Shown here: in pieces, positions 27,292-41,819 of the stretch
How the letters are laid out: each line of letters opens with the position of its first letter
Numbering within the stretch: the stretch's first letter is position 1
NCBI GenBank assembly: GCA_023474835.1
Contig: JAMCXQ010000026.1
Span: 1-42,020, forward strand
Direction: 5' to 3'
Length of the DNA: 42,020 bases
From: Patescibacteria group bacterium
GTDB taxonomy: Bacteria > Patescibacteriota > Minisyncoccia > Minisyncoccales > CG1-02-41-26
Position numbers and translations under genes: made by a program
The notes under the pieces: generated by a model
What the model saw: the letters and a program-made list of their open reading frames with translations, nothing else
What the model was told of the DNA's origin: nothing
Database searches by the model: none

Positions 27292-27293
27292 AA

Positions 27294-27322
27294 TTGATAT
27301 TTCATTCAAATTAACATAGAAT
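27294..27322 (+). promoter_or_regulatory. Sigma70-like promoter for flippase gene 27330
   Basis: TTGATA (27294-27299), a 17-nt spacer, then TAGAAT (27317-27322). The -10 ends 7 nt before the ATG, which predicts a leaderless transcript. Confidence 0.45.
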
Positions 27323-27329
27323 ACAACCA

Positions 27330-28568
27330 ATGAAAAGGCGTTTTGACAAATTGCTGGATTGGTTTGGCAAAAAAACCAAAATGGACGTTGCCTATTTGGC
27401 CAAAGCCAGCTTGTGGAGTTTTTTGGGCGACGGAGCGGCAACCATTGCCAGCATTCTGCTTTCCGTGGCTTTTGCCAACCTGATGAGCAAAGAAACTTTC
27501 GGTTTGTACCGCTACGTGCTTTCGGTGGCGGGCATTTTGACTTTTCCCACTTTGGTTGGCATAAATATGAGCATGGTGCAGTCCGTGGCACGGGGCTTTG
27601 AGGGCTCTTTTTTTGACGGGTTGAAAACCAAAATCAAATGGGGCAGTTTTGCCGCGCTTTTTTGCGCCGTAATCGCCGTTTATTACATAACTAAAGCCAA
27701 CCATACCCTGGCCGTTGCTTTCATCATTGCCGGGTGCTTTTTGCCTTTTATGGATTCGGTTTTGCTTTACCAGTCAATCTGGGCGGGCAGAAAAAACTTC
27801 AAAACGCAGAATATTTTCCAGGTTATAGCGCAGGTAATAGCCGTGGCCGTTGTTTTTTTGGTTTTGCTTTTCACCCGCAACATTCTTTTGGTTATTCTGG
27901 CCTATTTCGCCGCCTACACTTTTTCCAGGACGCTGCTGCTTTTTATCACCGTTAAAAAAGCGAAAATCAACAGACAAAAAGACGAGAAAACCATTTCTTT
28001 CGGCAAACATTTAAGCTTGATGCAGGTGCCGGGCATAATAGCCAACCAAACGGACAAAGTTTTGCTTTGGAGTTTTTTGGGGCCCTCGGCCCTGGCCGTT
28101 TATTCTTTCGCCATTTTGCTGCCCGACAACATCCGGACCGTTTTCCGCGATTTGGAAACCGTTATTTTGCCTAAATTCAGCCAAAAACAAAAACAGGAAC
28201 TGCAAAAAGGCCTGCCCAGAAAAATACTGGTTGTTTTGCCGGTTTTAATCTTGGCGGTTGTCGTTTATGTTTTAATAACCCCCTGGATTTTCAAAATATT
28301 TTTTCCCAGGTATCTTGACGCAGTGAAATATTCTCAAATTTATTCTTTGTGCATTATATTTTTCACTTTGCAAGTGCCTTTTACCACCGCCCTCACCTCG
28401 CAGCTTGAAAAAAGAAAACTATATTTTTTCAGGTTTTTCGCTCCCCTTTTGCAAATAGCCCTTTTGGCAGTATTCACGCCTCTCTACGGAATTATGGGCG
28501 CGATAGCAGCGATAATTTCCTCGCAAATTATCGGGCTTTTGGTTTTGATATTTCTTTTCAAAAAATAA
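27330..28568 (+). CDS. Wzx-like oligosaccharide flippase (MOP/polysaccharide biosynthesis protein family), copy 1
   Basis: 412 aa with about 12 TM segments. Clear paralogue of 29398-30648 (shared FGLYRYVLS, LKTKIKWG, LFLTRNI.LVILAYF, FGKHLSL). Confidence 0.8.
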   Translation: MKRRFDKLLDWFGKKTKMDVAYLAKASLWSFLGDGAATIASILLSVAFANLMSKETFGLYRYVLSVAGILTFPTLVGINMSMVQSVARGFEGSFFDGLKTKIKWGSFAALFCAVIAVYYITKANHTLAVAFIIAGCFLPFMDSVLLYQSIWAGRKNFKTQNIFQVIAQVIAVAVVFLVLLFTRNILLVILAYFAAYTFSRTLLLFITVKKAKINRQKDEKTISFGKHLSLMQVPGIIANQTDKVLLWSFLGPSALAVYSFAILLPDNIRTVFRDLETVILPKFSQKQKQELQKGLPRKILVVLPVLILAVVVYVLITPWIFKIFFPRYLDAVKYSQIYSLCIIFFTLQVPFTTALTSQLEKRKLYFFRFFAPLLQIALLAVFTPLYGIMGAIAAIISSQIIGLLVLIFLFKK

Positions 28569-28576
28569 CACCTACC

Positions 28577-29386
28577 TTATTTTATTTTCTGCTTTATTTT
28601 TTGGGGCACTAACAGCCAAGCTGCCCGCGCCAAAATGTGAAACATCCCCCGTATTTTCGGATACCCGTACTTTGCAATGGCGTACCAGCGGGCTTTTAAG
28701 GCATATTTTTGCTGGGAATTGCCGGAAAAAGAAATTGAGTTTGGCGACATCCGCCATTGCAAAAGTTTTTCCGCCAGGTTGGCCACCGGATATTTGGCGG
28801 CCAAGCGCAAGACCAATTCGTAGTCCTGGGCTTTTTTGAATTTTTCATCGTAAAAACCCTCTTTGTCCAAAACCGATTTTAGCATAAACAAAGACGAATG
28901 GATAAATTGATTGTTGAAAAGCAATCCTTTTTTAATGTTTTGATAATCCAAAGCCAGATTTTTCTCTCCGATTATTTTGCCCCCGCTGTCAATGACAAAA
29001 GCCAAAGAGCCACAAAGGACCGTTTCGGGATTTTTTAGCATAAAGTCAAACTGCTTTTCAAGCCGTTCGGGCCGGGCAATGTCATCGTCGTCCATACGGG
29101 CGATAAATTTGCCCGAGGCCAGGCAAAGAGCTTTGTTGAGCGACCTGGTCAGGCCCAAATTTTTTCCATTGTTGATAATTTTAATCCGTTCGTCTTTTTT
29201 TTGGAAAGCTTGCAAAATTTCCGTGGTTCGGTCGGTTGAACAGTCATTGACAATCAAAAACTCAAAGTCGGCCAATGTCTGGCTTAAAATGCTGTTAATG
29301 GCTTCTTTTATGTGTTCTTGGCCGTTATGGCTTGCCATTATAACTGAAACCAAAGGATTGTGGTTTTGCTGGTTTTGCGATAACAT
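28577..29386 (-). CDS. Glycosyltransferase family 2
   Basis: 269 aa. VSVIMASHNGQEHI...LIVNDCSTDRT and ARMDDDD (DxD). Confidence 0.9.
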   Translation of the reverse strand: MLSQNQQNHNPLVSVIMASHNGQEHIKEAINSILSQTLADFEFLIVNDCSTDRTTEILQAFQKKDERIKIINNGKNLGLTRSLNKALCLASGKFIARMDDDDIARPERLEKQFDFMLKNPETVLCGSLAFVIDSGGKIIGEKNLALDYQNIKKGLLFNNQFIHSSLFMLKSVLDKEGFYDEKFKKAQDYELVLRLAAKYPVANLAEKLLQWRMSPNSISFSGNSQQKYALKARWYAIAKYGYPKIRGMFHILARAAWLLVPQKIKQKIK

Positions 29387-29397
29387 ATAAATATGAT

Positions 29398-30648
29398 ATG
29401 CGGATAAAAGAAAAAATAAAAAATATTCTGCTTTGGAGCCAAAAATACACGAAAACCGATATGCTTTACGTGGCCCGGGGCGGCTCCTGGCTCCTGGCCA
29501 GCCAGCTGGTCAACTTTATAGCTAACGTTGTTTTAACGATAGCTTTGGCCAACCTGCTGCCGCCCCAAACTTACGGCCTTTACCGCTACGTTCTGTCAAT
29601 TGTGGTTATTTTGGCAATTCCCTGTTTATCGGGAATGAACTCGGCTGTTTTAAGGGCCGCCTCCAAAGACGAAAACGACAGTTTCTTGCCGGCTTTAAAA
29701 ACAAAAATAAAGTGGGGAACTCTGGGCGGGCTGGCCTCCCTGCTGGTCGGACTGTATTATTTTTCCCAGGGCAATTCTACTTTAACTTTTTGCTTTTTGA
29801 TATCGGCCTGTTTTATCCCGCTGATGAATCCTTTCGGACTTTACGAATCGTTTTTGGCGGGCAAAAAAAGATTTGATTTGCAAAGCCTGTACGGCATTGT
29901 CAACCAGGCGGTGTCCGCCGGGCTGATGATATTGGTTTTGTTTTTAACCAGGAATATTTTTTTGGTCATTTTGGCTTATTTCGTTTCCTGGACCGGACTT
30001 TATCTGATTTTCACCGTTATCACAATAAAAAAATGGAAATTAAAAGCGCAAAACCCCGACGAAGAAACGCTCGCTTTCGGCAAACATTTAAGTTTGCTTG
30101 ACGTTTTGTCAACAATTAACAGCCAGATTGACAAAGTGATAATGTGGCATTTTCTGGGAGCCGGGCCGGTGGCGATTTATTCCATTATCATGAATGTGCC
30201 CGACAAAATCAAGGACTTGCTCAAAACCATCGGTTCTTTGGCTTTCCCCAAGCTGAGCAGCCGGTCCATGGAAGAACTGAAAAAATCAGTGCCGCAGAAA
30301 ACCCTGATGCTTTTCCTTCTGGCAATTCCAGTGATGCTTGTTTATATATTAGCTGCCCCCTGGCTTTACAAAACATTTTTTCCCAAATATGCTTCCTTCG
30401 TAATCTATTCGCAGGTCTACGCTTTAATCTTTCTGACTTTCCCCCGGCTTTTGTTCGGCACAAGTTTAACCGCACAAAAACAAACCAGGTCCTTGTACAT
30501 TGCTTCTTTTATTTTAGGGCCCACCTATATCGTTTTGCTTTTAATTTTGACGCCGATTTTTGGCATTTGGGGGGCTATTAGCGCTTTTCTGGCGATTGAA
30601 GCAATGAATTTTATGACAAACTATTTGCAATTTAAGCGAATGAAATAA
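29398..30648 (+). CDS. Wzx-like oligosaccharide flippase, copy 2
   Basis: 416 aa, polytopic. Paralogue of 27330-28568. Its start lies only 11 nt from the divergent GT2 start. Confidence 0.8.
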   Translation: MRIKEKIKNILLWSQKYTKTDMLYVARGGSWLLASQLVNFIANVVLTIALANLLPPQTYGLYRYVLSIVVILAIPCLSGMNSAVLRAASKDENDSFLPALKTKIKWGTLGGLASLLVGLYYFSQGNSTLTFCFLISACFIPLMNPFGLYESFLAGKKRFDLQSLYGIVNQAVSAGLMILVLFLTRNIFLVILAYFVSWTGLYLIFTVITIKKWKLKAQNPDEETLAFGKHLSLLDVLSTINSQIDKVIMWHFLGAGPVAIYSIIMNVPDKIKDLLKTIGSLAFPKLSSRSMEELKKSVPQKTLMLFLLAIPVMLVYILAAPWLYKTFFPKYASFVIYSQVYALIFLTFPRLLFGTSLTAQKQTRSLYIASFILGPTYIVLLLILTPIFGIWGAISAFLAIEAMNFMTNYLQFKRMK

Positions 30649-31409
30649 TCGATGTTTCTCGTATCGTTTTCCAGGCCTTTGCCTTTTTTGGGAGTTTCAA
30701 AAGCAATAAAAATATCTTTTGTTTGGGACAAGCCGACTAAGAGACCTTTCAGCCATTTCAAATCAAAATCGCTCTGCCACAAATCCAAATGTTTGTCGCC
30801 AATGCCCTGCGTGTCGCCAATGCCGCAAATATGGAAATAAAACGGCTGTAAATCGCTGATTAAGCCCCGCGCGAACTGCTCGGGTTCTTTTTTTTGCGCC
30901 ACAGCCGATGAAAAAGCGTGCCCCACATCCAGACAAATTTCAAAGCCGCACTGTTCATGAATAAATTCCAGCTGCTCTTTTGAATAACCGAAGCAACTAA
31001 CCCCGCCGGTCTTCTTAACAAAACCTATTTTGGGCATATTTTCCATTAAAACTCGCCGGTCTTTTAATTTTTGCGCTTCTTTTTGAAAAATTTCGCTTGA
31101 ATCCCCTACTCCGGCATGCGTGATAATAAAAGGGCTTCGCAGATAATCGGCTGTTTTGACAATCTGCTCTTTCCAGATTGCCAGATTTTTTTCATTGAGA
31201 TTGAAAACGTCAAAATCGTGGCTGGTGTGCGGGCTGTGCACCATAACCGGAATTTCGTTTTGCGCGAAAACGTCAAAATCAGCAAACCGGAACGAATCCG
31301 GCACCAAATATATTTCAATAAAATCAATCAAACCCCGCTTTTGCAGGGCTGTTGCCTCGCCAAACCAATCTTTGTTAATGCTCCAAATTTTCAAGCCGTA
31401 TTTAAGCAT
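30621..31409 (-). CDS. Xylose-isomerase-like TIM-barrel protein (sugar phosphate isomerase/epimerase family)
   Basis: 262 aa. The pattern of H/E/D metal-ligand-like residues (VMVHSPH, ITHAG, LMEN, LDVGH, FHICG) is typical of the AP-endonuclease-2/TIM-barrel fold. The start overlaps the pseI stop by 8 nt. Confidence 0.65.
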   Translation of the reverse strand: MLKYGLKIWSINKDWFGEATALQKRGLIDFIEIYLVPDSFRFADFDVFAQNEIPVMVHSPHTSHDFDVFNLNEKNLAIWKEQIVKTADYLRSPFIITHAGVGDSSEIFQKEAQKLKDRRVLMENMPKIGFVKKTGGVSCFGYSKEQLEFIHEQCGFEICLDVGHAFSSAVAQKKEPEQFARGLISDLQPFYFHICGIGDTQGIGDKHLDLWQSDFDLKWLKGLLVGLSQTKDIFIAFETPKKGKGLENDTRNIDYFIRLNCK

Positions 31410-32460
31410 CTATCAAATCCCAGTTTAATGGCGTTGCTTTTTCAATGTCTTTGGCGGCTTTTTTGCCGATTATCCGGCTGAAATATTTTACTTCCAGGCC
31501 GTTTGCCGGCCGAAAACTGGCCACGTTCTCTTTGGAAAAAACTTCGCCTTTTTTCACGTCCTTTATCACCCAAAGCGACCTTCTAAAAACAATGTTTTCT
31601 TTTTCGCTCTCAGTTGGGCTTAAATCCGGCTTGCCCAGGGCTTTTTCAACTTCTCTTATTTCTTTTACCATTTTTGCAAATTCCTGCGGCTCCAAAGAAA
31701 AAGCCGCGTCCGGGCCGCCGTCCGTTCTGTTCATAATAAAATGACGCTCAATCACTTTCGCTCCCAAAGCAACGGCGGCCGGGCCCGAAGACGTGAGCAG
31801 GCTGTGGTCGGAAAGCCCGACAATATGTTCGGGAAAATGTTTTTTGATTTCCAGGATATTGAGCAAATTCAAATCCTCGGGCTTTGTCGGGTAAGCGCTC
31901 ACGCAATGCAAAATGGCAATGTCCTTTGCGTTGTTTTCTTTTAACACGGTTATTGCCTGGGACAATTCCTCGAAAGTGGTCATTCCGCGTGATATGATCA
32001 CCGGCTTTCTGGTTTGAGCCGCTTTTTGCAAGAATAAAACGTCCGTTGCCTCAAAAGAAGCGATTTTTACGCAGGGGCAATTCATCTTTTCCAGAAAATC
32101 AATTGAGGTTGCGTCGTAGGGCGTGCCGATTAAAGGCACTTCGTATTGCCAGGCGGTTTTTTCCAGCTCGGCGTGCCACTCCCAGGGCGTTTGGGCAATC
32201 TGGTAAAGCTGGTGCAGGGTCCGGTTTTTCCAAGCGTCGTTGACTTTCACCTGGAAGGGGTCTTTGTTTGAATCCAGGGTCATTGTGTTTGGAGTGTATG
32301 TCTGGATTTTAACAATGTCAGCTCCGGCTTCGCACGCGGCTATAACAAGCGTCTTGGCTTTTTCAAAATCGCCATTATGATTGGCTGACAACTCGGCGAT
32401 AATCAAAGCCGGGTGGCCCTCGCCAACCGTTTTATTTTTGATTTTAAATTCTTTTGCCAT
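31402..32460 (-). CDS. pseI: Nonulosonic acid synthase, pseudaminic acid synthase-like (NeuB family)
   Basis: 352 aa. PALIIAELSANHNGDFEKAK...GADIVKIQTY. C-terminal SAF-like domain (VIKDVKKGEVFSKENV). Confidence 0.8.
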   Translation of the reverse strand: MAKEFKIKNKTVGEGHPALIIAELSANHNGDFEKAKTLVIAACEAGADIVKIQTYTPNTMTLDSNKDPFQVKVNDAWKNRTLHQLYQIAQTPWEWHAELEKTAWQYEVPLIGTPYDATSIDFLEKMNCPCVKIASFEATDVLFLQKAAQTRKPVIISRGMTTFEELSQAITVLKENNAKDIAILHCVSAYPTKPEDLNLLNILEIKKHFPEHIVGLSDHSLLTSSGPAAVALGAKVIERHFIMNRTDGGPDAAFSLEPQEFAKMVKEIREVEKALGKPDLSPTESEKENIVFRRSLWVIKDVKKGEVFSKENVASFRPANGLEVKYFSRIIGKKAAKDIEKATPLNWDLIDA

Positions 32461-32463
32461 ATG

Positions 32464-32919
32464 TCAAATAACCAAATAATATTTCCCCCAGACGCCGTCC
32501 TGACCCTTTAACGCAAACCCCAGTTTTTCAAACAGTTTCTGCGAAGCGATGTTTTCCTGGTGGATTTCAGCCAGTAATGTCTTCATTCCCGCTTTCTTGG
32601 TTTGTTTTATCAGCAACTTCAAAGCTGCTTTGCCGACTCCCCTGCCCTGAAATTCTTTTAAGATTGCGATGCTAACTACTGCCTGCTGATTTTCTTTTGC
32701 ATCAAACCGAACCTGACCAATCGGAGTTTTGTTTTGGCAAACAACAAAAAGGCGCTTTTCATTCAAACCCAGAATAATGGGCATAATCCAGCTGACATGC
32801 TCTTGCCATTCAATAACTCTGTTTGTCTGAAAAAACCTGAAAACCTCGGGCTGGCTGTTTCGCAAGTGCCACAAAAATTCAATGTCGCTGAAATCAGCTT
32901 TTTTTAATTTTATTTTCAT
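32464..32919 (-). CDS. pseH: GNAT N-acetyltransferase, PseH-like
   Basis: Start moved to ATG 32919 (MKIKLKKADFSDIEFLWHLRN...). 151 aa. Acetyl-CoA motif QGRGVGKAAL. The size and N-terminal W.LRN pattern match PseH. Confidence 0.65.
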   Translation of the reverse strand: MKIKLKKADFSDIEFLWHLRNSQPEVFRFFQTNRVIEWQEHVSWIMPIILGLNEKRLFVVCQNKTPIGQVRFDAKENQQAVVSIAILKEFQGRGVGKAALKLLIKQTKKAGMKTLLAEIHQENIASQKLFEKLGFALKGQDGVWGKYYLVI

Positions 32920-32940
32920 AAACCGGCTTTTTTTGGGCGA

Positions 32941-33063
32941 GGAAAGTGATTTTGAGGAGTATCCGCAGGCAAAATGCTTGGTTTCGCCGCAGGCGAAATT
33001 TTGCCGAGGACTAAGCGAGCCCGTCGCAGGAGCGGGCGAGCGGCTCCTCAAAATTACCTTTCC
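32941..33063. repeat. 123-bp GC-rich palindromic (MITE/REP-like) intergenic element
   Basis: Terminal inverted repeats ggaaagtgattttgaggag (32941-32959) and ctcctcaaaattacctttcc (33044-33063). Internal nested hairpins are ggcaaaat...attttgcc and ttcgcc-gca-ggcgaa. Confidence 0.6.
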
Positions 33064-33074
33064 GAGCCCCCTGA

Positions 33075-34400
33075 TTAATTAAGGCGCTGGAAGCCCGCGT
33101 GCGCAACCGGGCCTTCCAGTAATTGTTCAACCTTATTGCCGGCAATGGCCTGGCTTAAAATTGAAAAAGCCTCATCAACCGCTTTTAAGTATTCGTTAAC
33201 ATGCTCTTTCTTAAACGCCAAAGAAACATACACTCCTGCTGAGGCCAAAACATTTCTTTTTAGCATTTCCTGGGTAAATAAAGTTCTAATTGCCTGGCCG
33301 TTGGCATAATCAAAACCCAAGTGCAGCATTGCCGGCATTCCTTCAACGTGCAGTTTAATGCCGTGCTTTTGCGCCATTTCCAAAAGCCCTTGCTTTATTT
33401 CCAAACCAGTTTTTTCCAAATACTCCGGCACTTTTTCTTTTATCATTTTGTTAATAGTGGCCAAGGCAGCGGTAGGGCCAATTCTTTCTGTCCAATAAGT
33501 GCTGGATATAAAGCTGGTCTGGGCTGCCTGTATTATATCTTTCTTGCCGATAATCGCGCCCATAGGAAAGCCGTTGGAAATGCCCTTGGCAAACACTGCC
33601 ATATCTGGCATTACGTTCATCTGCAAGTGCGCCCCGCCGATATTAAACCTAAAACCCACTGTTATTTCATCAAAAATCAAAACTGCCTTAATTTTATCAG
33701 CAATCTCCCTCACTTTTTTTACAAACCCGGTTGTATCAAGCTGAAACTTCATCGGCTCCATTACAATAACGCCAACATCGCTGTTGCTTGCCACAATACT
33801 TTCCAGTTCTTCAATTTTATTAAAATGAAACGGCAGCATTGTGCCAGCCAATCCTCTAGGCACGCCGTTTGGCTCAAGGCCAGCCAGCAAATGCCCGTCC
33901 AAATTTTTATCGTTGGCCAAATTGGCCGACAAATACCAATCTTGCCAGCCATGATATCCGCAAAAAGCAATTTTATCTTTGCTAGAATAAGCCCTGGCAA
34001 CTCTAACAGCCACTGCCATTGATTCTCCGCCAGTTCTGGCATAGCGCACCATGCCTGCCCAAGGGTGTATTTGCAAAAGTAATTCGGCTAACTCCACTTC
34101 TTCTTTGCAGTTTAAAGTGTTCATCGAGCCGTTATCAATCGCCTGTTTGACTGCTTTGTCAACATCATCGTCTGCATAGCCCAAAATACACGCGCCAATG
34201 CCCATATAGGAAAAATCCAGATACTTGTTTCCGTCCAAGTCCCAAACATAACAGCCTTTGGCTTTTTCATAATAGCTTGGCCATAAATCTGGCAAAAACA
34301 TTTCTGGCCGCTTGCTCAACAATTGCGTGCCGCCTGGAATTATTTCTTTTGCTCTTTTGTAAAGCTCAATGCCTTTTTTATTTTTTTCTTTTAAACTCAT
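33075..34400 (-). CDS. Class-III PLP-dependent aminotransferase (glutamate-1-semialdehyde aminomutase-like)
   Basis: 441 aa. GGTQLLSKRP, YARTGGESMAVAVR, LIFDEITVGFR and FAKGISNGFPMGA (PLP-Lys region). Confidence 0.85.
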   Translation of the reverse strand: MSLKEKNKKGIELYKRAKEIIPGGTQLLSKRPEMFLPDLWPSYYEKAKGCYVWDLDGNKYLDFSYMGIGACILGYADDDVDKAVKQAIDNGSMNTLNCKEEVELAELLLQIHPWAGMVRYARTGGESMAVAVRVARAYSSKDKIAFCGYHGWQDWYLSANLANDKNLDGHLLAGLEPNGVPRGLAGTMLPFHFNKIEELESIVASNSDVGVIVMEPMKFQLDTTGFVKKVREIADKIKAVLIFDEITVGFRFNIGGAHLQMNVMPDMAVFAKGISNGFPMGAIIGKKDIIQAAQTSFISSTYWTERIGPTAALATINKMIKEKVPEYLEKTGLEIKQGLLEMAQKHGIKLHVEGMPAMLHLGFDYANGQAIRTLFTQEMLKRNVLASAGVYVSLAFKKEHVNEYLKAVDEAFSILSQAIAGNKVEQLLEGPVAHAGFQRLN

Positions 34401-34404
34401 AGTA

Positions 34405-35001
34405 TTAAAGTTTTTTTCCTATAATAATTTGATGTTTTTCTCCTCCGCTCTCGTCAATCTCCTCAAAGATAATTTCAAATCCTGCCTCTTGAATAATTTC
34501 TCTGTTTTTCTCAGGCCCATAATGACTCCAGTACATTTGTGTTCCATGAAAATTCTCTTCTCCTTCCCACTCCGAAGCTCCCATAGTCACAAGAATTAAT
34601 CCACCTTGGCAAAGAAAAGAATTGATTTTGTTAAAGATTTTTTGATGGGTTTCCTTTGGAACATGAAAAATCGCATAAAAAGAAACAACTGCATCAACTT
34701 GATACTCATTATCTTTTAAATTCGACATGTCCCTAACCTCAAAATTTCCTTGAGGCAAATTTTTTCTCGCTAAATCTATCTGCTTATCAGAAATATCAAT
34801 CCCTATCACTTTGCATCCTTTTTCAATCAAATATTTATCAACAGGAACTCCCGCCCCACAACCAATGTCTAGCACTGTTGAATTTTCTTTCAATAGATTT
34901 TCTAATTTCTCAAGATAAAATATGCTGCTAAAATCACCGCGCTGGTTTGAATAATTCTCTGCAACTTTATTATACCCTTCTTTTACCATTTCCTGCTTCA
35001 T
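34405..35001 (-). CDS. Class I SAM-dependent methyltransferase
   Basis: 198 aa. Motif I VLDIGCGAGVP, then VIGIDIS and DAVVSFYAIFHV. Confidence 0.8.
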   Translation of the reverse strand: MKQEMVKEGYNKVAENYSNQRGDFSSIFYLEKLENLLKENSTVLDIGCGAGVPVDKYLIEKGCKVIGIDISDKQIDLARKNLPQGNFEVRDMSNLKDNEYQVDAVVSFYAIFHVPKETHQKIFNKINSFLCQGGLILVTMGASEWEGEENFHGTQMYWSHYGPEKNREIIQEAGFEIIFEEIDESGGEKHQIIIGKKL

Positions 35002-35762
35002 AATTTATCTTCTTTTATTGATTTTAATAATCCTTCGTTGCGCCCTATGCCTTGGTTTATTTTCAACAGCTCGGGCTTTTGCCCGAATAATTTTAGCATA
35101 TCGTCCAGGCCAAAAAACTTTTTTATCGGATACAAATAGCCATAAATTTTTCTTATTAAAATCAAGTCCTTTGGCTCGTCCAAAGTCAGGCGCAAAGCCG
35201 ACAAATCCCGGCCCTTTCTTTTGACATTGCCCAGCCGGAAAATTTCAGGATGTTTGGCAATGTACGGAGTAACGTGTTCTCTTTCCGATTTCAGTTTGGC
35301 ATTTTCCCGGCATTTTCCCAGCGTTTTGAAGCTGAAAACCTCAACGTCCAGGCCGTCGGGAAAAGTGGGCGGCCGGACATTGCTTACGTAATCAAACTTT
35401 TTCTTGTTTCTTAAATAAAACTCTATCACCTGTTCGACCACAACCCTGTCAAGCAGCGGGCAATCAGCGGTAATGCGAACAATCGGGTCAAGGCCAAACT
35501 GTTTTGCCGCGTCATAATACTGCTTTAATAATTCGCCTGTTCTGCCCCGATGAACCAAACATTTGTGTTTTTTGCCGATTTTTTCTAAAATGCCGTCTTC
35601 TTCTTTATCAGTAGTGGCTAAAACTATCTTTTTGGGAGAATAATGAATTTTTTTCACCCTTTCCAAAACATGTTCAATAACATATTTGCCCTGGATTTTT
35701 TTAAGCATTTTTTTTGGCAAACGGGTTGAACCGGTTCTGGCCTGAACGATAATGCCTAACAT
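34998..35762 (-). CDS. Cytidylyltransferase, SpsF/acylneuraminate cytidylyltransferase family (candidate CMP-nonulosonate synthase)
   Basis: 254 aa. N-terminal IIVQARTGSTRLPKKML, then RITADCPLLD. 4-nt overlap with the downstream methyltransferase gene. Confidence 0.75.
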   Translation of the reverse strand: MLGIIVQARTGSTRLPKKMLKKIQGKYVIEHVLERVKKIHYSPKKIVLATTDKEEDGILEKIGKKHKCLVHRGRTGELLKQYYDAAKQFGLDPIVRITADCPLLDRVVVEQVIEFYLRNKKKFDYVSNVRPPTFPDGLDVEVFSFKTLGKCRENAKLKSEREHVTPYIAKHPEIFRLGNVKRKGRDLSALRLTLDEPKDLILIRKIYGYLYPIKKFFGLDDMLKLFGQKPELLKINQGIGRNEGLLKSIKEDKL

Positions 35763-35781
35763 AAATTAAAATTTTCAATTT

Positions 35782-36789
35782 TCAATTATCAATTTTCAAA
35801 CAAACGGATTTCTTAATGGCTAAGGCAATTTTCAGGGTTTCAATGCCTCGCTGCAAGCCGCTTGACGGATTTTTTTTTGCTTTCAAACACTGCAAAAATT
35901 CTTTTGCTTCCGCCAGATAAGTCGTATTCCAGTCAAAATTTTCAATTTTATCAATGGTTTGCCATTTCTTTTCCGCGGCTGGAAACAAATCCAGTTTCGC
36001 GCTGCCCAAATCCCAAACCAATGCGCCCTTTTCGCCGATTATTTTTAAGTGCCGGGAATAATCTCTCTGCAAGTAATCCATGTGAACCTGGCCGATAATG
36101 CCGTTTTCAAATTGCAAAATCGCTTCAACGTAATCCTCGGTTTCAATTTTCAAATTGCTTTGTTTTGCTGTCAAACCGAAAACCTTTTTAACTGGCCCGA
36201 ACAAATTATACAAAGAATTGATTTCGTGGATATCGTCCAATAAAATGCCCCCGCCCAGCGCTTTTTTGGCGGAATATGACTTGGAATAATCGGTTTTCGG
36301 CCGCCAGTCAGGCAGATATTGGCCGAATTCCGCCCGAACCCCCCAAACCTTGCCCAGCGTTTTTTTTGCCAAAAGCGCTTTGATTTTTTGAAACTGAGGG
36401 TGGAAATCAATGTTATAACCCGTCATTATCGGCTTTATGTTTTGGCCTGCTTTTTGCAATTGGCCCAAGCCCGCCAATGTGTGGCTCAGCGGCTTTTCAA
36501 TGAACATTGGGGTTTTTGTTTTGGCAACATCCAAAGCAATCTTCATATGTGTGGAACTTGGCGAGCAAATAAAAACCGCGTCCCATTTTTCTTTTAAGGC
36601 TTGCTTTAAGCTCGGCCGAAACCCGACCCCCCCGAAACTGGGACTCGGATTTTTGGAGGTCGGGTTTCTAAAACTCGGGTCAATTGCGCCAATTTGCTTA
36701 ACGCCAAGGGTTTGCAGGTTTTTGATATGCCTCCTGCCGATTGAGCCCACTCCCGCCACCAGAATTTTATAATCAGTTTTTGTTGACAT
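35782..36789 (-). CDS. Gfo/Idh/MocA-family NAD(P)-dependent oxidoreductase
   Basis: 335 aa. Rossmann ILVAGVGSIGRRH and ...DAVFICSPSSTH..EKP motifs. Confidence 0.85.
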   Translation of the reverse strand: MSTKTDYKILVAGVGSIGRRHIKNLQTLGVKQIGAIDPSFRNPTSKNPSPSFGGVGFRPSLKQALKEKWDAVFICSPSSTHMKIALDVAKTKTPMFIEKPLSHTLAGLGQLQKAGQNIKPIMTGYNIDFHPQFQKIKALLAKKTLGKVWGVRAEFGQYLPDWRPKTDYSKSYSAKKALGGGILLDDIHEINSLYNLFGPVKKVFGLTAKQSNLKIETEDYVEAILQFENGIIGQVHMDYLQRDYSRHLKIIGEKGALVWDLGSAKLDLFPAAEKKWQTIDKIENFDWNTTYLAEAKEFLQCLKAKKNPSSGLQRGIETLKIALAIKKSVCLKIDN

Positions 36790-37909
36790 TGATGATTTCT
36801 TTTACGGTTTCAATCACATATTCCACTTCTTCGTCCGTTAATTTGGGAAACAAAGGCAATGTTATGGCCTGGTCGTAGTATTTTTCCGCTATTGGAAAAT
36901 CGCCTTTTTTATAGCCGAAGGTTTTTTGGTAAAAAGGCATATAATGCACCGGCACGTAATGAACCTGGCATTTTATCCCCTTTTCCGCCAGTTTTTCAAA
37001 AATTTCCTTGCGGCTGATTTTTAATTTTGCCAAGTCAAACTGCACGGGATAAATGTGCCAGGCGGTTTTGGCAAAGCTTTCTTCTTTTATTAAAATGATT
37101 TCCGGAATGTCCTTGAACGCTTCCTGGTATTTTTTTACTATTTCCCTTCTCCGGGCGACGAATTTATCCAGTTTTTTAAGCTGGGAAATCCCCAGGGCGC
37201 AATGAATGTCGGTTAAACGGTAATTGTATCCCAGCTCCTCGATTTCATAATACCAGGGCCCGATCTCGGGCTTTTTAACAATGCCGTGGTGCCGGAAAGT
37301 TTTTAATTTTCGGGCAAACTGTTCGTTGTCAGTCAAAACCATTCCGCCCTCGCCCGAAGTTATGGTTTTTACGGGATGAAAACTTAAAATAGTCAGGTCT
37401 GCCAAGGAGCCGACTTTTTTGCCTTTATATTCGGAACCCAGGGCGTGCGCACCGTCTTCCACAACCAATAAATTATGTTTTTCGGCGATTTCTTTAATCG
37501 CGTCGAAATCGCAGGGCTGGCCCGCAAAATCCGTAATGGCGATGGCTTTGGTTTTAAAATTTATTTTTCCTTCTATTTTAGCGGGGTCGATATTTAGGGT
37601 ATCGCTTTTAATGTCGCAAAAAACAGGAATGCCCCCGCAATAAACAGCCCCGTTGGCCGTGGCGGAGAAAGTCATCGGAGTAGTGACAACCTCATCGCCT
37701 TTTTTTATGCCCAAAACAAAATAAGCGCCGTGCAAAGCGGAAGTGCCCGAAGAAAAAGCGACTGCGTATTTTGCGTTGCAATAATCGGCGATTGAGCGCT
37801 CAAATTCGTCCACCTTGGGCCCGCAGGTAAGCCAGTCGCTTTTTAACACCTCGACCACAGCCGCAATGTCGTCGTCGCTGATCCACTGTTTGCCATAAGG
37901 AATTAACAT
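36773..37909 (-). CDS. pseC: DegT/DnrJ/EryC1-family aminotransferase, PseC-like (UDP-4-amino-4,6-dideoxy-sugar transaminase)
   Basis: 378 aa. IPYGKQWISDDDIAAVVEVLKSDWLTCGP and SFHPVKTITSGEGG (PLP-Lys). Confidence 0.85.
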   Translation of the reverse strand: MLIPYGKQWISDDDIAAVVEVLKSDWLTCGPKVDEFERSIADYCNAKYAVAFSSGTSALHGAYFVLGIKKGDEVVTTPMTFSATANGAVYCGGIPVFCDIKSDTLNIDPAKIEGKINFKTKAIAITDFAGQPCDFDAIKEIAEKHNLLVVEDGAHALGSEYKGKKVGSLADLTILSFHPVKTITSGEGGMVLTDNEQFARKLKTFRHHGIVKKPEIGPWYYEIEELGYNYRLTDIHCALGISQLKKLDKFVARRREIVKKYQEAFKDIPEIILIKEESFAKTAWHIYPVQFDLAKLKISRKEIFEKLAEKGIKCQVHYVPVHYMPFYQKTFGYKKGDFPIAEKYYDQAITLPLFPKLTDEEVEYVIETVKEIINVNKN

Positions 37910-37921
37910 AAAATTTGTAAA

Positions 37922-38890
37922 TTATTGGATAATTTCCTTCAGTTCTTCTTTCGTGAGCCACCGGGTATTTTTATCGCTGGTGTATTGAAAACCGTCCGGC
38001 AATGGTTTGCCTTCATTCTCTGTTTTGAATTCGCCCCAAAAAGGAAACTCCGGCTCAATGGTAAAGTAATTGTCGTGCTCTTTTACGTGTTTTGCTTCTT
38101 CCGCGGTAATGAGCGCTTCGTGCAGTTTTTCGCCGGGCCGAATGCCGATAATTTCTTTTTTGGCTTCCGGCGCCGCAACTTCCGCCAAATCCATTATTTT
38201 CATTGAGGGAATTTTAGGCACGAAAATTTCACCGCCCCTCATAAGTTCCAGGCATTTTACCACAAATTCCACGCCCTGCTCCAGGGTTATCCAAAAACGG
38301 GTCATTTTTTCGTCGGTGATGGTTATTTTGCCGGTTTTCGCCTGCTCTCTGAACAACGGCGCAACCGAGCCGCTTGAGCCAACCACATTACCGTATCTGG
38401 TGCAGGCAAACCTGGTGTTGTTTTTGCCCGCGTACGAATTGCCCTGAACGATTATTTTTTCCATTACCATTTTGGAAGCCCCGTATAAATTAACCGGATA
38501 AACCGCTTTATCGGTGCTCAAAGCAATAATTTTTCCAACGCCAGCGTCAATCGCCGCTTCCACGATATTTATGGCTCCCTGAATGTTTGTTTTTATTGCC
38601 TCAATGGGATTGTATTCGCAAACCGTAATGTGTTTTAAGGCGGCAGCGTGAACCACAATATCGACGTCTTTCATCGCTCTTTTCAAGCGGTCTTTGTCCC
38701 TTATGTCGCCGATAAAAAACCGCAAACGCTCGTCCTGGAATTTTCTCTCCATTTCCACCTCTTTTAGCTCGTTTATGTCAAAAACCCGAATGGCTTTGGG
38801 GCTATATTTTGCCAAAACCACTTCCACGAATTTTGAGCCAAAAGATCCGACTCCGCCGGTGAGCAAAATTGTTTTGTTGTTTAGTACCAT
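37922..38890 (-). CDS. pseB: UDP-N-acetylglucosamine 4,6-dehydratase, PseB/FlaA1-like
   Basis: 322 aa. LLTGGVGSFGS, FFIGDIRD, HAAALKH and YGASKM (YxxxK). Confidence 0.88.
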   Translation of the reverse strand: MVLNNKTILLTGGVGSFGSKFVEVVLAKYSPKAIRVFDINELKEVEMERKFQDERLRFFIGDIRDKDRLKRAMKDVDIVVHAAALKHITVCEYNPIEAIKTNIQGAINIVEAAIDAGVGKIIALSTDKAVYPVNLYGASKMVMEKIIVQGNSYAGKNNTRFACTRYGNVVGSSGSVAPLFREQAKTGKITITDEKMTRFWITLEQGVEFVVKCLELMRGGEIFVPKIPSMKIMDLAEVAAPEAKKEIIGIRPGEKLHEALITAEEAKHVKEHDNYFTIEPEFPFWGEFKTENEGKPLPDGFQYTSDKNTRWLTKEELKEIIQ

Positions 38891-38924
38891 ATGTTTATGT
38901 TTTTGTGTTATTTGCTCTATACTA

Positions 38925-40184
38925 CTACTTTTGAATTAGTTTTTCAATTTCCGAAACGATTTTCGCAACAGCCCCGCCACTGAGACCACCCGCGAATTTT
39001 TGCAGATACCGGCTTTGTTTTTCTTTATCCAATGGAAAATCGCTGAATGTTTTTTGCGGCAGTTCTCTGATTATTTCCGCAATGCTTTTTAAGTACGAAA
39101 CGCCGAGAAAACCGAAAAAATCGTTCTCTTTTTCCAGAATGGTTTGCCACAGAACATTGCGGATATCCTTCCAGTCCGAAACGTCGGGAGCAATGCAAAC
39201 GTTGCTCACCCCCATTGCCGCCGCTTCAATGGCGGCCGTGGAGTAAAAATTAAAACAGACATCGGCGACGGAAAAACACTCAATTATCGTTGACGGATAA
39301 AAGCCCCCGTCAAAAAGGATTTTATCCGCCATTTTAATTAAATATTTTTTAGCCGGGTCCTTTTTACGGCATTTAACCAGAAGAAAACAGTTATTTCGCT
39401 CGCAAAACCGCTTAATCGCCAAAGAAACCCGAAAATCGTTTTCTTTTCCCATAACCTGTTTTATCCATCTTTTATTGAACGAAAAAAGCGCCAAAGGCAG
39501 CTGCGAAAAAACATTATGCCAGCCAAAAACATACTTTGTCCAAAATCTGTCAATACTCGAACCAAAAGGAAAGGGCAGCAGCAAAACCACTTTTTTGCCC
39601 GCTCCAATCCCCCATTTTTTTCTTACGGCAGTCGGGTCAATAATGGATTTTTGCTCGGCCGTCCAAAAACCAACTGGTTTTACCCTCTCCCGGAGCTTTT
39701 TCTCAAACTCCGAAAAATTTTCTTCTTTTGTTTTGCCTGCTTTTTTCAAATACTCAAACATCCATTCCAGCCATTCAGAAGAATAAACAAAAAACCTGTC
39801 GGGCATCGAAAGGTTTTTCCCCGAGTGCGGGCCGCTGTCAAACCCGTTTTGCAAAGCCGCCCAAAAAACGCCTTTTTTGGCAAGCTCCTCCCTTAAATTG
39901 AAGTGCGCCTCGATAAAATCCAGAGAAAAAACAAGCTCAATGCTGTTTTGCAAAACTTTATCAATAAAATCCCGCTCGCTTGAAAATTCCAAAGAAAAAA
40001 CCTGGCCGTTGCGAAAAAACGGAGTTTGCGCAATGTCGGGAAACTGGTAGCCCTTTGAGCCGCCTTTTGGCTGGCTGTAATCGTGCAAACAAAAAACACT
40101 ATGCCCTTTTTGCAAAAAGCCGTCTATCACCGGGCCAAATGACCTGAAATAAACGTTTCTGGCAATTAAAAAACCGATTCTCAT
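38925..40184 (-). CDS. Hypothetical protein, probable GT-B-fold enzyme (candidate nonulosonate transferase or PseG substitute)
   Basis: 419 aa. N-terminus MRIGFLIARN...QKGHSV. The C-terminal ADVCFNFYSTAAIEAAAMGVSNVCI resembles GT-B/TagF-like donor-binding segments. No confident family call. Confidence 0.45.
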   Translation of the reverse strand: MRIGFLIARNVYFRSFGPVIDGFLQKGHSVFCLHDYSQPKGGSKGYQFPDIAQTPFFRNGQVFSLEFSSERDFIDKVLQNSIELVFSLDFIEAHFNLREELAKKGVFWAALQNGFDSGPHSGKNLSMPDRFFVYSSEWLEWMFEYLKKAGKTKEENFSEFEKKLRERVKPVGFWTAEQKSIIDPTAVRKKWGIGAGKKVVLLLPFPFGSSIDRFWTKYVFGWHNVFSQLPLALFSFNKRWIKQVMGKENDFRVSLAIKRFCERNNCFLLVKCRKKDPAKKYLIKMADKILFDGGFYPSTIIECFSVADVCFNFYSTAAIEAAAMGVSNVCIAPDVSDWKDIRNVLWQTILEKENDFFGFLGVSYLKSIAEIIRELPQKTFSDFPLDKEKQSRYLQKFAGGLSGGAVAKIVSEIEKLIQK

Positions 40185-40194
40185 AATTTTATAA

Positions 40195-40242
40195 ATATCC
40201 TTTGCACTCCACTGCTACGTAGCAGTGGAGTGCAAAGGATAT
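40195..40242. repeat. 48-bp perfect palindrome (24-bp arms, no loop) between two co-oriented genes
   Basis: atatcctttgcactccactgctac|gtagcagtggagtgcaaaggatat. It begins 3 nt after the stop of 40246-41037 and ends 10 nt before the ATG of 38925-40184. Confidence 0.9.
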
Positions 40243-40245
40243 CTC

Positions 40246-41037
40246 TTAAAGTTTTTTTATGACAATTTCCTGGTCGGGGTAAACAAATAATCTTTCCACC
40301 AGCAAACGCCAAAAAAAGTTATGCTTTTTTGAACGCCTCTTCAAACCGCTTTCGTAAAATCTTGACCAAACGATGTTTTTTTGCGAAAACAAAAGCTTGT
40401 CCAGTTTTTTTTCGCTCAGAAAATTTATTGATTTCAAAAAACCGAGCGGTTTTCTCATCAGCCATAAATAAAAATAGCCGAAAATTTTGGGCAAAAACGT
40501 GGGAAAAGCCATTTTGTAATGGTTTTCCGCGGGGAATGCGTAGTTGGGAAGGCCGATGTGGATATGGCCTCCGGGCTTGACAACCCTGACCATTTCTTGC
40601 AGACATTTTTCAACATTTTGCACGTGTTCCAAAACAGTGAAACAATGGACGAAATCAAACTGGTTAGGAGCAAAACTCATTTGCTCGCCGAATTCCTGTT
40701 TGAAGTTAGATGAGCTGACTCCGGTTTCTCTGCACTTTGCCACGATAATGGAAAATTCTTCCTTGTCCGGCTCGATGCCGAAAACCTCTGCTCCGAATTT
40801 TTCAGCCAGAACAACTGCCAAGCCGCCGGTGCCCGCCCCGAAAACAAGGTGCTTTTGCCCGGTAAAATCAACATTGAGCATTTTCTGCCAATACTCCATT
40901 TTTGCCATTTCCCAATCCTCCTCGTTGAGCCGCTCTTTGGCTCTTTGCTCAAAATCGTTAAGGCCGCACGACTTGTAGTATTTTTCGTAGTAAGCGATTA
41001 TTTTGTTTTGCAGCTCAGGCGAATATTGAAACATCAT
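40246..41037 (-). CDS. Class I SAM-dependent methyltransferase
   Basis: Start moved to ATG 41037 (MMFQYS...), an ATGA overlap with the upstream stop. Motif I LVFGAGTGGLAV, then FDFVHCFTVLEHV and VKPGGHI. Confidence 0.8.
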   Translation of the reverse strand: MMFQYSPELQNKIIAYYEKYYKSCGLNDFEQRAKERLNEEDWEMAKMEYWQKMLNVDFTGQKHLVFGAGTGGLAVVLAEKFGAEVFGIEPDKEEFSIIVAKCRETGVSSSNFKQEFGEQMSFAPNQFDFVHCFTVLEHVQNVEKCLQEMVRVVKPGGHIHIGLPNYAFPAENHYKMAFPTFLPKIFGYFYLWLMRKPLGFLKSINFLSEKKLDKLLFSQKNIVWSRFYESGLKRRSKKHNFFWRLLVERLFVYPDQEIVIKKL

Positions 41038-41819
41038 ATTTTTTGAAAAACCAGCAAAATCGCATGGCCGGTTATGCGGGCAAACAACAGGCTGAAAAAC
41101 AGCCGGAAACATCTGGCGGCAAAATTGCGGCTTTGGTAAACTTTTTGCCAGAAACTATGCCCGAAAGAAATTTCGTCTTTCAGCCCCTTTATCGCGTCAA
41201 ACGGCTTTTTCATTTTAAGGGAAAAACCCAAACTTTCAAGCTCTTTGATAATGTTTTTCTCGGAAAAAATAAACTCATAAAAATTCTTCTCCCCCTGTGC
41301 TTCGTAATTCGCATAATCTCCTCTTTTCGCTTTCCATTTTCGCAAAGGGTTTAACCAGGGAAAAGTCAAAAACAAATAACCGTTTTTTTTCAAAACCCTT
41401 TTTGCTTCCACTAAAATCAGCGAGTGGTCGGTGAAATGTTCAATCACACCCAGCGACCAGTAGCCGTCAAAAAAATCATCGGGAAAATCCAGGCTTCTCA
41501 CGTCCCCTGCCTTTATTTTAAGCCCGGAAAAATGTTGGTTGATTTTTGCTATTGTTTTTTGGGCAAAATCAATTCCGAAAGCGTCGTAGCCCCAGGCCTC
41601 CAAACCGAAAACATTTTGCCCCAAGCCGCATCCTCCTTCCAAAACCCTGGCCCCTTTTGGCAAAAAACGGCTGCTGGCTTTTTTAACCAGCAAATTGTTC
41701 TTGCCTGCTTTAACCTGCCCGACAAAATCACCGGCCTGCCAGTGGCTGTCCCAAAAATCAGCCGTGGCCTTCGCCTCCACAACAACTATTCTTTGGTTTG
41801 CCTGGTCGTAAAAATTCAT
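41034..41819 (-). CDS. Class I SAM-dependent methyltransferase
   Basis: 261 aa. VLEGGCGLGQN, AFGIDF, FDGYWSLGVIEHF and LKKNGYLFL. Confidence 0.8.
   Translation of the reverse strand: MNFYDQANQRIVVVEAKATADFWDSHWQAGDFVGQVKAGKNNLLVKKASSRFLPKGARVLEGGCGLGQNVFGLEAWGYDAFGIDFAQKTIAKINQHFSGLKIKAGDVRSLDFPDDFFDGYWSLGVIEHFTDHSLILVEAKRVLKKNGYLFLTFPWLNPLRKWKAKRGDYANYEAQGEKNFYEFIFSEKNIIKELESLGFSLKMKKPFDAIKGLKDEISFGHSFWQKVYQSRNFAARCFRLFFSLLFARITGHAILLVFQKI

Follow-up and report, generated by a model that had tools for sequence, protein, structure and literature searches.

Nonulosonic acids such as pseudaminic acid (Pse) are surface determinants for motility and for phage and immune recognition, and their biosynthesis serves glycoconjugate tools. 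In the canonical pathway of Helicobacter pylori and Campylobacter jejuni, PseB, PseC, PseH, PseG, PseI and PseF lead from uridine diphosphate (UDP)-GlcNAc to a nonulosonate activated with cytidine monophosphate (CMP). Here we analyze a nonulosonate operon in a 42,020-nt stretch of DNA from a Patescibacteria group bacterium (contig JAMCXQ010000026.1, assembly GCA_023474835.1), called the window throughout. The operon shares with the canonical pathway the PseB, PseC and PseI equivalogs, a PseH-like GNAT N-acetyltransferase and an enzyme of the CTP_transf_3 family, and the same start and end points are to be expected. However, the window is without PseG, its cytidylyltransferase is SpsF-like rather than PseF, and its GNAT falls below the PseH cut-off. 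It also adds an oxidoreductase, a class-III aminotransferase, a methyltransferase and an endonuclease-IV-like enzyme. These added enzymes are chiefly a widespread module, not a lineage-specific invention. We think it fairly probable that the operon makes, activates and probably transfers a Pse-type nonulosonate, and that its product is a Pse derivative with an added amine and possibly a methyl group, carried on a glycan that is lipid-linked and flipped. The value of the locus lies in two concrete enzyme assignments with very broad phylogenetic reach.

Gene clusters that contain the module have been drawn before, without a function being given to it, and it is not specific to the candidate phyla radiation (CPR). 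In most of subgroups IA-IE of Aeromonas group I (96 strains), the genes read pseB-pseC-aldo/keto reductase (AKR)-'pseF'-class III aminotransferase-(pseG)-(pseH)-pseI (PMC7874193). These polar-flagellin islands thus share with the window the order around oxidoreductase, cytidylyltransferase and aminotransferase, and subgroups ID and IE are also without pseG (PMC7874193). They differ in having an AKR, a Maf transferase and flagellin glycosylation, whereas the window has a Gfo-family oxidoreductase and a Wzx/Wzy-type locus and no flagellar genes. In the PseG-less Aeromonas a haloacid dehalogenase (HAD)-IA hydrolase (ID) or a deacetylase (IE) is described, and a TIM-barrel protein like that of the window is not mentioned; the likeness seen here is one of gene order (PMC7874193). 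The lipopolysaccharide cluster of Legionella pneumophila Sg6/12 contains a GNAT, PseG, a 'GSA aminomutase' (glutamate-1-semialdehyde aminomutase) and a cytidylyltransferase, and an aryl-alcohol dehydrogenase follows farther on (PMC3694923). In Leptospira, an aminotransferase of uncertain role has accessions consecutive with those of a CMP-nonulosonate synthetase and a nonulosonate synthase (PMC3438082). Vibrio sp. B9-25K2 carries a fusion of an AKR and an SpsF-like enzyme, and it produces a compound with the mass of PseAc2 and different fragmentation in tandem mass spectrometry (PMC7371886). The sps operon of Bacillus and the Pse operon of B. thuringiensis have, like the window, an SpsF-like CTP_transf_3 domain in the CMP-synthetase slot. 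The Bacillus operons contain PseG/SpsG, however, which the window does not, and the B. thuringiensis stretch examined has no class-III aminotransferase, whereas the window has one. The B. thuringiensis operon was reportedly reconstituted biochemically by Li et al. in 2015. Our literature searches found nothing relevant that links CPR or Patescibacteria with nonulosonic or pseudaminic acid, nothing on triamino nonulosonates and nothing on GSA aminomutase together with legionaminic acid (Leg) and flagellin. A Tenacibaculum O-antigen paper, a Clostridium Pse paper and the SugarBase preprint hold nothing on the module.

In the window, the operon is a minus-strand run at 30621-41819. The open reading frame (ORF) listing shows it as one compact co-directional gene series with intergenic distances of -79 to +61 nt, the sole exception being a 155-nt spacer between the aminotransferase and GNAT genes. 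A sequence-only reading of this DNA had described a near-gapless run with homologues of five of the six canonical enzymes. Its coordinates and gene calls, including the ATG start of the GNAT gene, are borne out by the ORF listing and by Pfam and NCBIfam scans. Three of the five homologues exceed the NCBIfam equivalog cut-offs. PseB, the inverting UDP-GlcNAc 4,6-dehydratase (37922-38890, 322 aa, with a further match to Pfam Polysacc_synt_2), reaches 482.7 bits with TIGR03589 (cut-off 407.75 bits) and is 75–77% identical to its counterparts in two syntenic Pacebacteria loci, L001 and L005. PseC, the DegT-family UDP-4-keto-6-deoxy-L-AltNAc C4 aminotransferase (36773-37909, 378 aa), reaches 502.7 bits with TIGR03588 (cut-off 423.5) and is 52% identical to the PseC that PGAP annotates in B. 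thuringiensis. PseI, a pseudaminic acid synthase of the NeuB family with a SAF domain (31402-32460, 352 aa), reaches 427.3 bits with TIGR03586 (cut-off 340.25) and 309.8 bits with the NeuB model, below that model's own 399.65. In a neighbor-joining tree of NeuB homologues, the window protein falls among PseI proteins annotated by PGAP and NeuB homologues of PseG-bearing loci, and the homologues of NeuC-bearing loci branch separately. These cut-offs and this placement support the earlier assignment of the operon to a Pse-type, not a Leg- or Neu-type, nonulosonate.

The other two canonical homologues are less exact than had been proposed. The best NCBIfam model for the GNAT (32464-32919, 151 aa from its ATG) is indeed PseH (TIGR03585), at 61–62.2 bits and hence below the cut-off of 93.1. 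The protein shares 31% identity with the GNAT half of a PseG-PseH fusion annotated by PGAP and 45–53% with the equally placed GNAT in L001, L005 and L006. A mechanical ORF call extends this gene to 33051 from an upstream TTG, which adds 44 implausible residues relative to the ATG start. The cytidylyltransferase (34998-35762, 254 aa) matches Pfam CTP_transf_3 (PF02348) at 98 bits and the PseF model TIGR03584 at 18.9 bits against a cut-off of 205.7, and so is not a PseF equivalog; a second CTP_transf_3 type present in related loci reaches 157 bits with the same model. Its closest PDB match (1.6e-40) is 6oew, deposited as 'cytidylyltransferase' and presumably a Leptospira entry. The SpsF-like enzyme is the sole cytidylyltransferase of the cluster, and it is ~29% identical to the SpsF-like domain of the B. 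thuringiensis Pse-operon protein encoded between pseC and pseG. When spsF is mutated in B. subtilis, Leg is still made and its transfer is lost, a phenotype that fits loss of a CMP-nonulosonate synthetase (PMC7439481). On these grounds, the SpsF-like enzyme of the window is a probable CMP-nonulosonate synthetase and functional stand-in for PseF.

A further departure from the canonical pathway is at the PseG step. As the earlier reading had noted, no PseG is recognizable: tblastn with three PseG references against the 42-kb window gave no match at E <= 0.01 except that of the GNAT part of the PseG-PseH fusion to the window GNAT. MurG is the one window protein with a Glyco_tran_28 domain. We considered MurG (13684-14796) as a hidden PseG and rejected it, as it has no similarity to the PseG references.

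A candidate for this step lies at the end of the run, where the gene for a TIM-barrel protein (30621-31409, 262 aa) overlaps pseI by 8 nt. The sequence-only reading had taken this protein for a xylose-isomerase-like tailoring enzyme, a claim in need of revision. Its match to Pfam AP_endonuc_2 (PF01261) is 22.4 bits, below the gathering score of 31.1. No endonuclease IV model is among its NCBIfam matches at E <= 0.1, the lone match being a weak one to CbiR, a small-molecule phosphodiesterase of the AP_endonuc_2 superfamily. When the AlphaFold2 model (mean predicted local distance difference test score, pLDDT, 94.7) was compared with the PDB by Foldseek, the top match was the endonuclease IV 3aam (E 4.3e-12, template modeling (TM) score 0.73), and other endonucleases IV followed at TM 0.66–0.72; the sequence identity to solved endonucleases IV is 13–20%. 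A profile search of PDB sequences with the TIM family also placed endonuclease IV first (E 2.3e-5). Nine residues (H58, H98, E123, D161, H164, H193, D205, H207 and E238) are invariant in 24 family members and align with the metal-binding His, Glu and Asp positions of Staphylococcus aureus endonuclease IV. Thus the protein shares with endonuclease IV and CbiR the fold and the nine positions that hold a trinuclear metal center, whereas its proposed substrate is a UDP-sugar, not DNA. A role as a sugar isomerase or epimerase was rejected because of these nine endonuclease-IV-type ligands, a smaller metal site being expected in such enzymes. A role as the housekeeping Nfo was rejected because the family is narrow and bound to nonulosonate clusters and matches no endonuclease IV model.

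The distribution of the TIM gene is the strongest argument for its function. The family is small (47 proteins found), and its named members come from metagenome-assembled genomes (MAGs) of CPR bacteria. Among the loci collected around relatives of the aminotransferase, described below, PseG occurs in 11 and the TIM protein in seven, never together, and in three additional genomic contexts the TIM relative lies in a nonulosonate cluster that has no PseG. Of 31 further metagenome loci, each 9 kb or longer, that encode a TIM relative, NeuB is present in 28, a cytidylyltransferase in 27, a distant NeuC in three and PseG in none. The three loci that lack NeuB hold at most ~6 kb on the side where NeuB is expected, two of them ~1 kb or less; wherever the sequence continues beside the gene, TIM relatives sit in NeuB/cytidylyltransferase clusters. 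The NeuB tree shows the same pattern: its PseI clade consists of a PseG-linked branch and a branch that holds the window protein, and half of the latter is TIM-linked while PseG occurs in none of it. Because of these active-site ligands and this complementary distribution, the TIM protein is most likely the missing UDP-sugar hydrolase or phosphodiesterase that replaces PseG. If the beta-phosphate were attacked in the manner of endonuclease IV and the anomeric oxygen departed, UDP and the free sugar would result, as they do with PseG. If true, this would be a new activity for the endonuclease-IV fold.

HAD-type hydrolases may be another route by which PseG is replaced in some loci. A cluster without PseG (L003) encodes at 10411-11472 a 353-aa protein with weak matches to HAD-phosphatase (Hydrolase, Acid_PPase) and GNAT domains, an architecture that parallels the PseG-PseH fusions. 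Another PseG-less cluster (L090) encodes at 2616-3692 a 358-aa protein with a weak Acid_PPase match.

The second assignment concerns three genes between pseC and the GNAT gene. They encode a Gfo/Idh/MocA NAD(P) oxidoreductase (35782-36789, 335 aa, three Pfam GFO_IDH_MocA domains), the cytidylyltransferase, and a HemL-like class-III pyridoxal phosphate (PLP) aminotransferase (33075-34400, 441 aa, Pfam Aminotran_3), in the order Gfo-cytidylyltransferase-(methyltransferase)-aminotransferase-GNAT-PseI. We scanned a collection with one genome per species for the aminotransferase, which gave at least 599 pattern matches and at least 580 confirmed relatives. The best 80 of these were kept, and ORFs were called, clustered and Pfam-labeled in 84 loci; co-occurrence was counted in those 54 non-redundant loci in which three or more genes flank the aminotransferase on both sides. 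The oxidoreductase, SpsF-like cytidylyltransferase and class-III aminotransferase constitute a conserved module, present in at least 580 bacterial and archaeal species. Conservation of the aminotransferase is unusually high: the window protein is 57–83% identical to those of the best 80 of the at least 580 species matches, and its relatives come from CPR bacteria, DPANN, Asgard archaea, methanogens, Planctomycetota, Chloroflexota, Omnitrophota, Proteobacteria and others. A CTP_transf_3 cytidylyltransferase lies within two genes of the aminotransferase, or is fused to it, in 43 of the 54 loci (80%). A Gfo, AKR or short-chain dehydrogenase (SDR) oxidoreductase lies within three genes in 36, and a NeuB homologue is present in 40 (74%). 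The type of oxidoreductase is interchangeable, with Gfo found 30 times, AKR 13 times and SDR 16 times across the 84 loci. Fusions bind the module together covalently. The cytidylyltransferase is fused to the aminotransferase in P0045, P0057/L003, L041, L062 and Pseudosulfitobacter WP_089422657, the last of these encoded on a plasmid between PGAP-annotated pseC and pseG. It is fused to an AKR, in both orders, in L082, L057 and L069.

Two kinds of core pathway carry this trio. In Pse-type loci (4,6-dehydratase, DegT aminotransferase, PseG, GNAT, NeuB) the module lies between pseC and pseG/pseH/pseI, and in Leg-type loci (NeuC, DegT aminotransferase, 4,6-dehydratase) it lies beside a cytidylyltransferase closer to PseF. 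Because it is found with otherwise complete core pathways of both kinds, we regard it as an add-on. Assigning the function of a trio attached to Pse and Leg pathways in both prokaryotic domains would annotate at least hundreds of genomes and would explain odd genes in the Aeromonas, Legionella and Leptospira clusters.

What the trio does is suggested by its enzyme families. The two best NCBIfam matches of the Gfo oxidoreductase, inositol 2-dehydrogenase and then archaeal UDP-GlcNAc 3-dehydrogenase, are both below cut-off, and its PDB relatives are sugar and inositol dehydrogenases. The best-scoring solved relative of the aminotransferase is GSA aminomutase (185 bits with the family profile), and the class-III fold and the aligned, conserved catalytic lysine are shared with HemL. 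The aminotransferase was nevertheless rejected as a true HemL. It falls below the cut-offs of all GSA-aminomutase models (204 bits with TIGR00713, cut-off 527; 259 with NF004856, cut-off 486), and its genomic context is nonulosonate genes rather than tetrapyrrole genes. Pairs of a Gfo-family dehydrogenase and a transaminase that turn a sugar hydroxyl into an amine include WbpB/WbpE, GnnA/GnnB and NtdC/NtdA, and KdnB/KdnA make Kdo8N on a 2-keto-3-deoxy acid sugar before CMP activation. The module shares with all of these the pairing of an NAD(P) oxidoreductase with a PLP aminotransferase. It differs in that its aminotransferase is class III rather than DegT-type, its oxidoreductase is interchangeable (Gfo, AKR or SDR), and it is linked or fused to a cytidylyltransferase.

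These observations can be assembled into a pathway. PseB and PseC, identified by profile hidden Markov models (HMMs), would convert UDP-GlcNAc into UDP-4-amino-4,6-dideoxy-L-AltNAc, whose N4 the PseH-like GNAT would acetylate. The endonuclease-IV-fold metalloenzyme would then free the sugar from UDP in the place of PseG, as its active site and gene distribution suggest. PseI, also identified by HMM, would condense the free sugar with phosphoenolpyruvate, and the SpsF-type cytidylyltransferase would make the CMP-sugar in the place of PseF. Around this activation step, the Gfo oxidoreductase and the class-III aminotransferase would work together as dehydrogenase and transaminase, by which one of the secondary hydroxyls of the nonulosonate would become an amine. 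The module is expected to act on the finished nonulosonate or its CMP derivative because it is found alongside Pse cores as well as Leg cores and is tied to the enzyme of the activation step. Since both sugars are 9-deoxy, the hydroxyls available to it would be those at C4 and C8. We prefer an 8-amino derivative because oxidation at C8 gives a methyl ketone, a typical class-III transaminase substrate; amination at C4 is the alternative, and the choice of site is a guess. The 198-aa methyltransferase may then methylate the product, and a GT-B protein encoded upstream of pseB is the candidate transferase.

Several points weigh against this pathway. First, we made no direct link to an organism with a known 8-amino nonulosonate, the Tenacibaculum literature being uninformative. 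AKRs, which take the place of Gfo in some loci, usually reduce carbonyls rather than oxidize alcohols. The Vibrio compound is an isomer with PseAc2 mass and no extra nitrogen, from a strain that has the AKR-cytidylyltransferase fusion and no reported class-III aminotransferase (PMC7371886). Second, four loci (L025, L026, L029 and L044) have the aminotransferase without a nearby NeuB or cytidylyltransferase, and because of these few loci the enzyme may not be strictly specific to nonulosonates. Finally, many PseG-less loci are also without the TIM protein, which therefore cannot be the sole replacement for PseG, and pseG or pseF could lie elsewhere in the genome, beyond the 42-kb window.

A bolder generalization is that the endonuclease-IV-fold enzyme replaces PseG across a whole branch of Pse pathways, and that the module makes a hitherto unrecognized class of triamino (for example 8-amino) nonulosonates in hundreds of lineages, including CPR, DPANN and Asgard, the charged sugar being displayed on the host-contact surfaces of episymbionts. 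Taken as a whole, we consider this generalization unlikely. A role of the window glycan in host interaction at the surface or in immune evasion, raised by the sequence-only reading, is speculation; for host interaction it is plausible from the Wzx/Wzy context.

Taken literally, the sequence-only reading gives a different account of the product. The Gfo oxidoreductase, the class-III aminotransferase, the methyltransferase and the xylose-isomerase-like TIM protein would then be four independent tailoring enzymes that yield a lineage-specific, heavily decorated nonulosonate on a Pse core without PseG. All four genes are indeed present and interleaved with the core genes, and Pfam confirms the oxidoreductase, aminotransferase and methyltransferase. 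The gene for the class I S-adenosylmethionine (SAM) methyltransferase (34405-35001, 198 aa, Pfam Methyltransf_25/11) overlaps the cytidylyltransferase gene by 4 nt and is separated from the aminotransferase gene by 4 nt. Neither the syntenic loci L001, L005, L006 and L007 nor, at E < 1e-8, any of the 84 related loci contain a counterpart. Judged by these comparisons, the methyltransferase is a strain-specific insertion, as this explanation would have it; possibly it methylates the sugar product. The Gfo, aminotransferase and cytidylyltransferase genes, by contrast, are a module common to hundreds of species, and the TIM protein carries nine endonuclease IV ligands and is found only where PseG is absent. 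Thus oxidation and amination are still the best reading of the Gfo and aminotransferase pair, as that reading predicted, but the enzymes are neither four independent additions nor peculiar to this genome, and we judge the four-enzyme explanation unlikely.

Another explanation is that the module alters a configuration or shifts a substituent, by redox epimerization or by a 1,2-amino shift like that of GSA aminomutase, and thereby makes an isomer of di-N-acetyl-Pse. The Vibrio B9-25K2 product would fit, having the PseAc2 mass and a different fragmentation, as would the fact that the closest solved relatives of the aminotransferase are aminomutases. Yet a class-III aminotransferase is not reported in the Vibrio cluster, and the window enzyme fails every GSA-aminomutase cut-off. 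An aminomutase would, moreover, need a free vicinal amino-carbonyl group, which the N-acetylated intermediates should lack. We find an isomerizing role quite improbable.

The operon could also make plain Pse5Ac7Ac, with the Gfo oxidoreductase and the aminotransferase forming a separate, co-located amino-sugar pathway, for example to a 3-amino sugar through UDP-GlcNAc 3-dehydrogenase and a transaminase. The covalent fusions of the aminotransferase to cytidylyltransferases of the CMP-synthetase type speak against such a separation, as do the frequencies with which a cytidylyltransferase (80%) and NeuB (74%) accompany the aminotransferase, and the position of these genes between pseC and pseH/pseI in many phyla and in Aeromonas. 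To our knowledge, nucleoside diphosphate-hexose transaminases belong to the DegT family rather than to class III. What favors a separate pathway is that the second-best NCBIfam match of the Gfo protein is archaeal UDP-GlcNAc 3-dehydrogenase and that both NeuB and a cytidylyltransferase are missing from the vicinity of the aminotransferase in a few loci. On this evidence, we regard it as decidedly doubtful.

The last enzyme that bears on the PseG step is a 419-aa protein (38925-40184) encoded directly upstream of pseB, as it also is in L001 and L005. It has no Pfam match at E <= 0.01 and no NCBIfam match at E <= 1e-5, a weak NCBIfam match pointing to the BFO_1060 glycosyltransferase family, and its 38 relatives form a narrow Pacebacteria family. 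Its AlphaFold2 model (pLDDT 89.5) has 261 Foldseek matches in the PDB at E <= 0.001, and the best 50 of these are GT-B enzymes. The highest TM scores (0.56–0.58) are to TagF, a polymerase that uses CDP-glycerol, and other matches are BshA, plant UDP-glycosyltransferases and UDP-GlcNAc 2-epimerases. By its predicted structure, then, the protein has a GT-B fold, and the model makes it a candidate CMP-nonulosonate glycosyltransferase. Because PseG and NeuC are themselves hydrolases of GT-B fold, this protein might instead be the functional PseG, which would leave the TIM protein with another role; matches to enzymes of the hydrolyzing-epimerase type and the place of the gene directly upstream of pseB could be read in that way. 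However, the protein has no similarity to the three PseG references, its family comprises ~38 proteins and is absent from other PseG-less loci with the TIM protein (L007 and L089), and its top TM scores point to TagF, a cytidine-nucleotide-using transferase. We therefore hold a hydrolase role like that of PseG to be a weaker alternative to the transferase role, and consider it very unlikely that this protein rather than the TIM protein supplies the PseG activity.

The operon belongs to a larger glycan locus in a genome whose CPR affiliation is supported. The first 21 kb of the window carry housekeeping genes (gyrB, nusG, L11, tmk, gatB, Asp/Asn-tRNA ligase, MraY, a Mur ligase, FtsW, MurG, gltX, a Xer-type recombinase, L9 and others). 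The rest of the glycan assembly locus (21901-30648) encodes, by Pfam, a Wzy_C-domain protein (752 aa), a Bac_transf initiating transferase, a methyltransferase, a GT4 transferase, two Wzx-type flippases and a GT2 transferase. Because of these Wzx/Wzy-type genes at 21.9–30.6 kb, we assign the nonulosonate genes to a lipid-linked, flipped glycan system. Two further SAM methyltransferase genes (40246-41112 and 41034-41819, both Pfam Methyltransf_11/25) begin the minus-strand run; the first of them is 55% identical to the equally placed gene in L001. The whole locus, ~20 kb, is conserved in order in two Pacebacteria-type MAG contigs, L001 (GCA_028718785.1) and L005, at 36–83% protein identity, with the genes at 21901-30648 kept in order and sequence at 36–62%. 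For three cluster proteins (aminotransferase, TIM protein and 419-aa protein), the relatives that bear a name among the best matches come from MAGs assigned to Candidatus Pacebacteria or to Patescibacteria, and Pacebacteria are filed under Minisyncoccota, the former CPR. The host is a Pacebacteria-like CPR bacterium, in agreement with the CPR-like genome that had been proposed. That the cluster is a contaminant or a chimeric join foreign to a CPR genome, which the earlier reading had itself raised, is extremely improbable, since it is contiguous with the housekeeping genes without a step in GC content, its locus is syntenic with the two MAG contigs, and the named best relatives of three of its proteins are from such MAGs.

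The sequence-only reading had also held that such a sugar is unexpected in a minimal symbiont. The genome does look like that of a CPR bacterium, but the surprise is reduced. Among the best 120 aminotransferase relatives, the named ones are mostly from Patescibacteria-group MAGs, and many of the related loci are from CPR, DPANN or Asgard. The locus points to a common investment of ultra-small CPR bacteria in nonulosonate-type sugars.

Other tailoring genes recur in the loci that carry the aminotransferase. Some Parcubacteria-type loci (L002, at 12877-18404, and L014) have, together with the aminotransferase, a phosphopantetheinyl transferase, an AMP-binding enzyme, an Fe-type alcohol dehydrogenase, LuxE, LuxC and an unannotated 84-aa ORF. 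This set suggests acyl activation and aldehyde formation, and a further acyl decoration of the sugar. B12-binding radical-SAM genes recur in nonulosonate clusters of 14 loci, and radical-SAM/SPASM genes in others (L006, L009, L019, L021, L022, L071, L078, L089, L090 and others have such radical-SAM genes); there are none in the window. They hint at C-methylation or other radical tailoring.

The 155-nt spacer in the operon (32920-33074, minus strand) is GC-rich, and the fold predicted for it is one long, imperfectly paired hairpin (-62.5 kcal/mol, z = -3.78). Rfam gives no match for the spacer, and one arm of the hairpin occurs a single time in the window. At the same junction, two relatives have extra ORFs (462 aa in L005, 145 aa in L006). 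Possible explanations of the spacer are a hot-spot for insertions, the remnant of a mobile element or a hairpin for mRNA processing. A scan of 29–42 kb for promoters and terminators gave no decisive signal.

Within the upstream glycan locus, the two Wzx-type (Polysacc_synt) flippase genes lie at 27330-28568 and 29398-30648 (plus strand). L001 and L005 have a single clear flippase counterpart, 56–58% identical to the second of these. The 227-aa methyltransferase of this region (25482-26165) is absent from the same two relatives. The window's single tRNA gene, tRNA-Pro (GGG) at 21408-21478 (plus strand), is at the boundary of the glycan locus, between an M50 peptidase gene and the Wzy_C gene; the Rfam scan of the window found this one tRNA and nothing else. 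Among the housekeeping genes, the Mur ligase ORF (10045-12570, plus strand) encodes 841 aa with a lone Pfam match, Mur_ligase_M, at residues 520–649, which implies either a long extension at the N terminus or a fusion protein. Finally, Wzy_C-domain proteins of 690–870 aa, several with weak or faint matches to TPR repeats, recur beside CPR nonulosonate clusters. Examples are found in the window (21901-24159, minus strand), L001 (18675-20756), L002 (1668-4271) and L088 (15396-17642). These large proteins could be enzymes like O-antigen ligases or like protein O-oligosaccharyltransferases.

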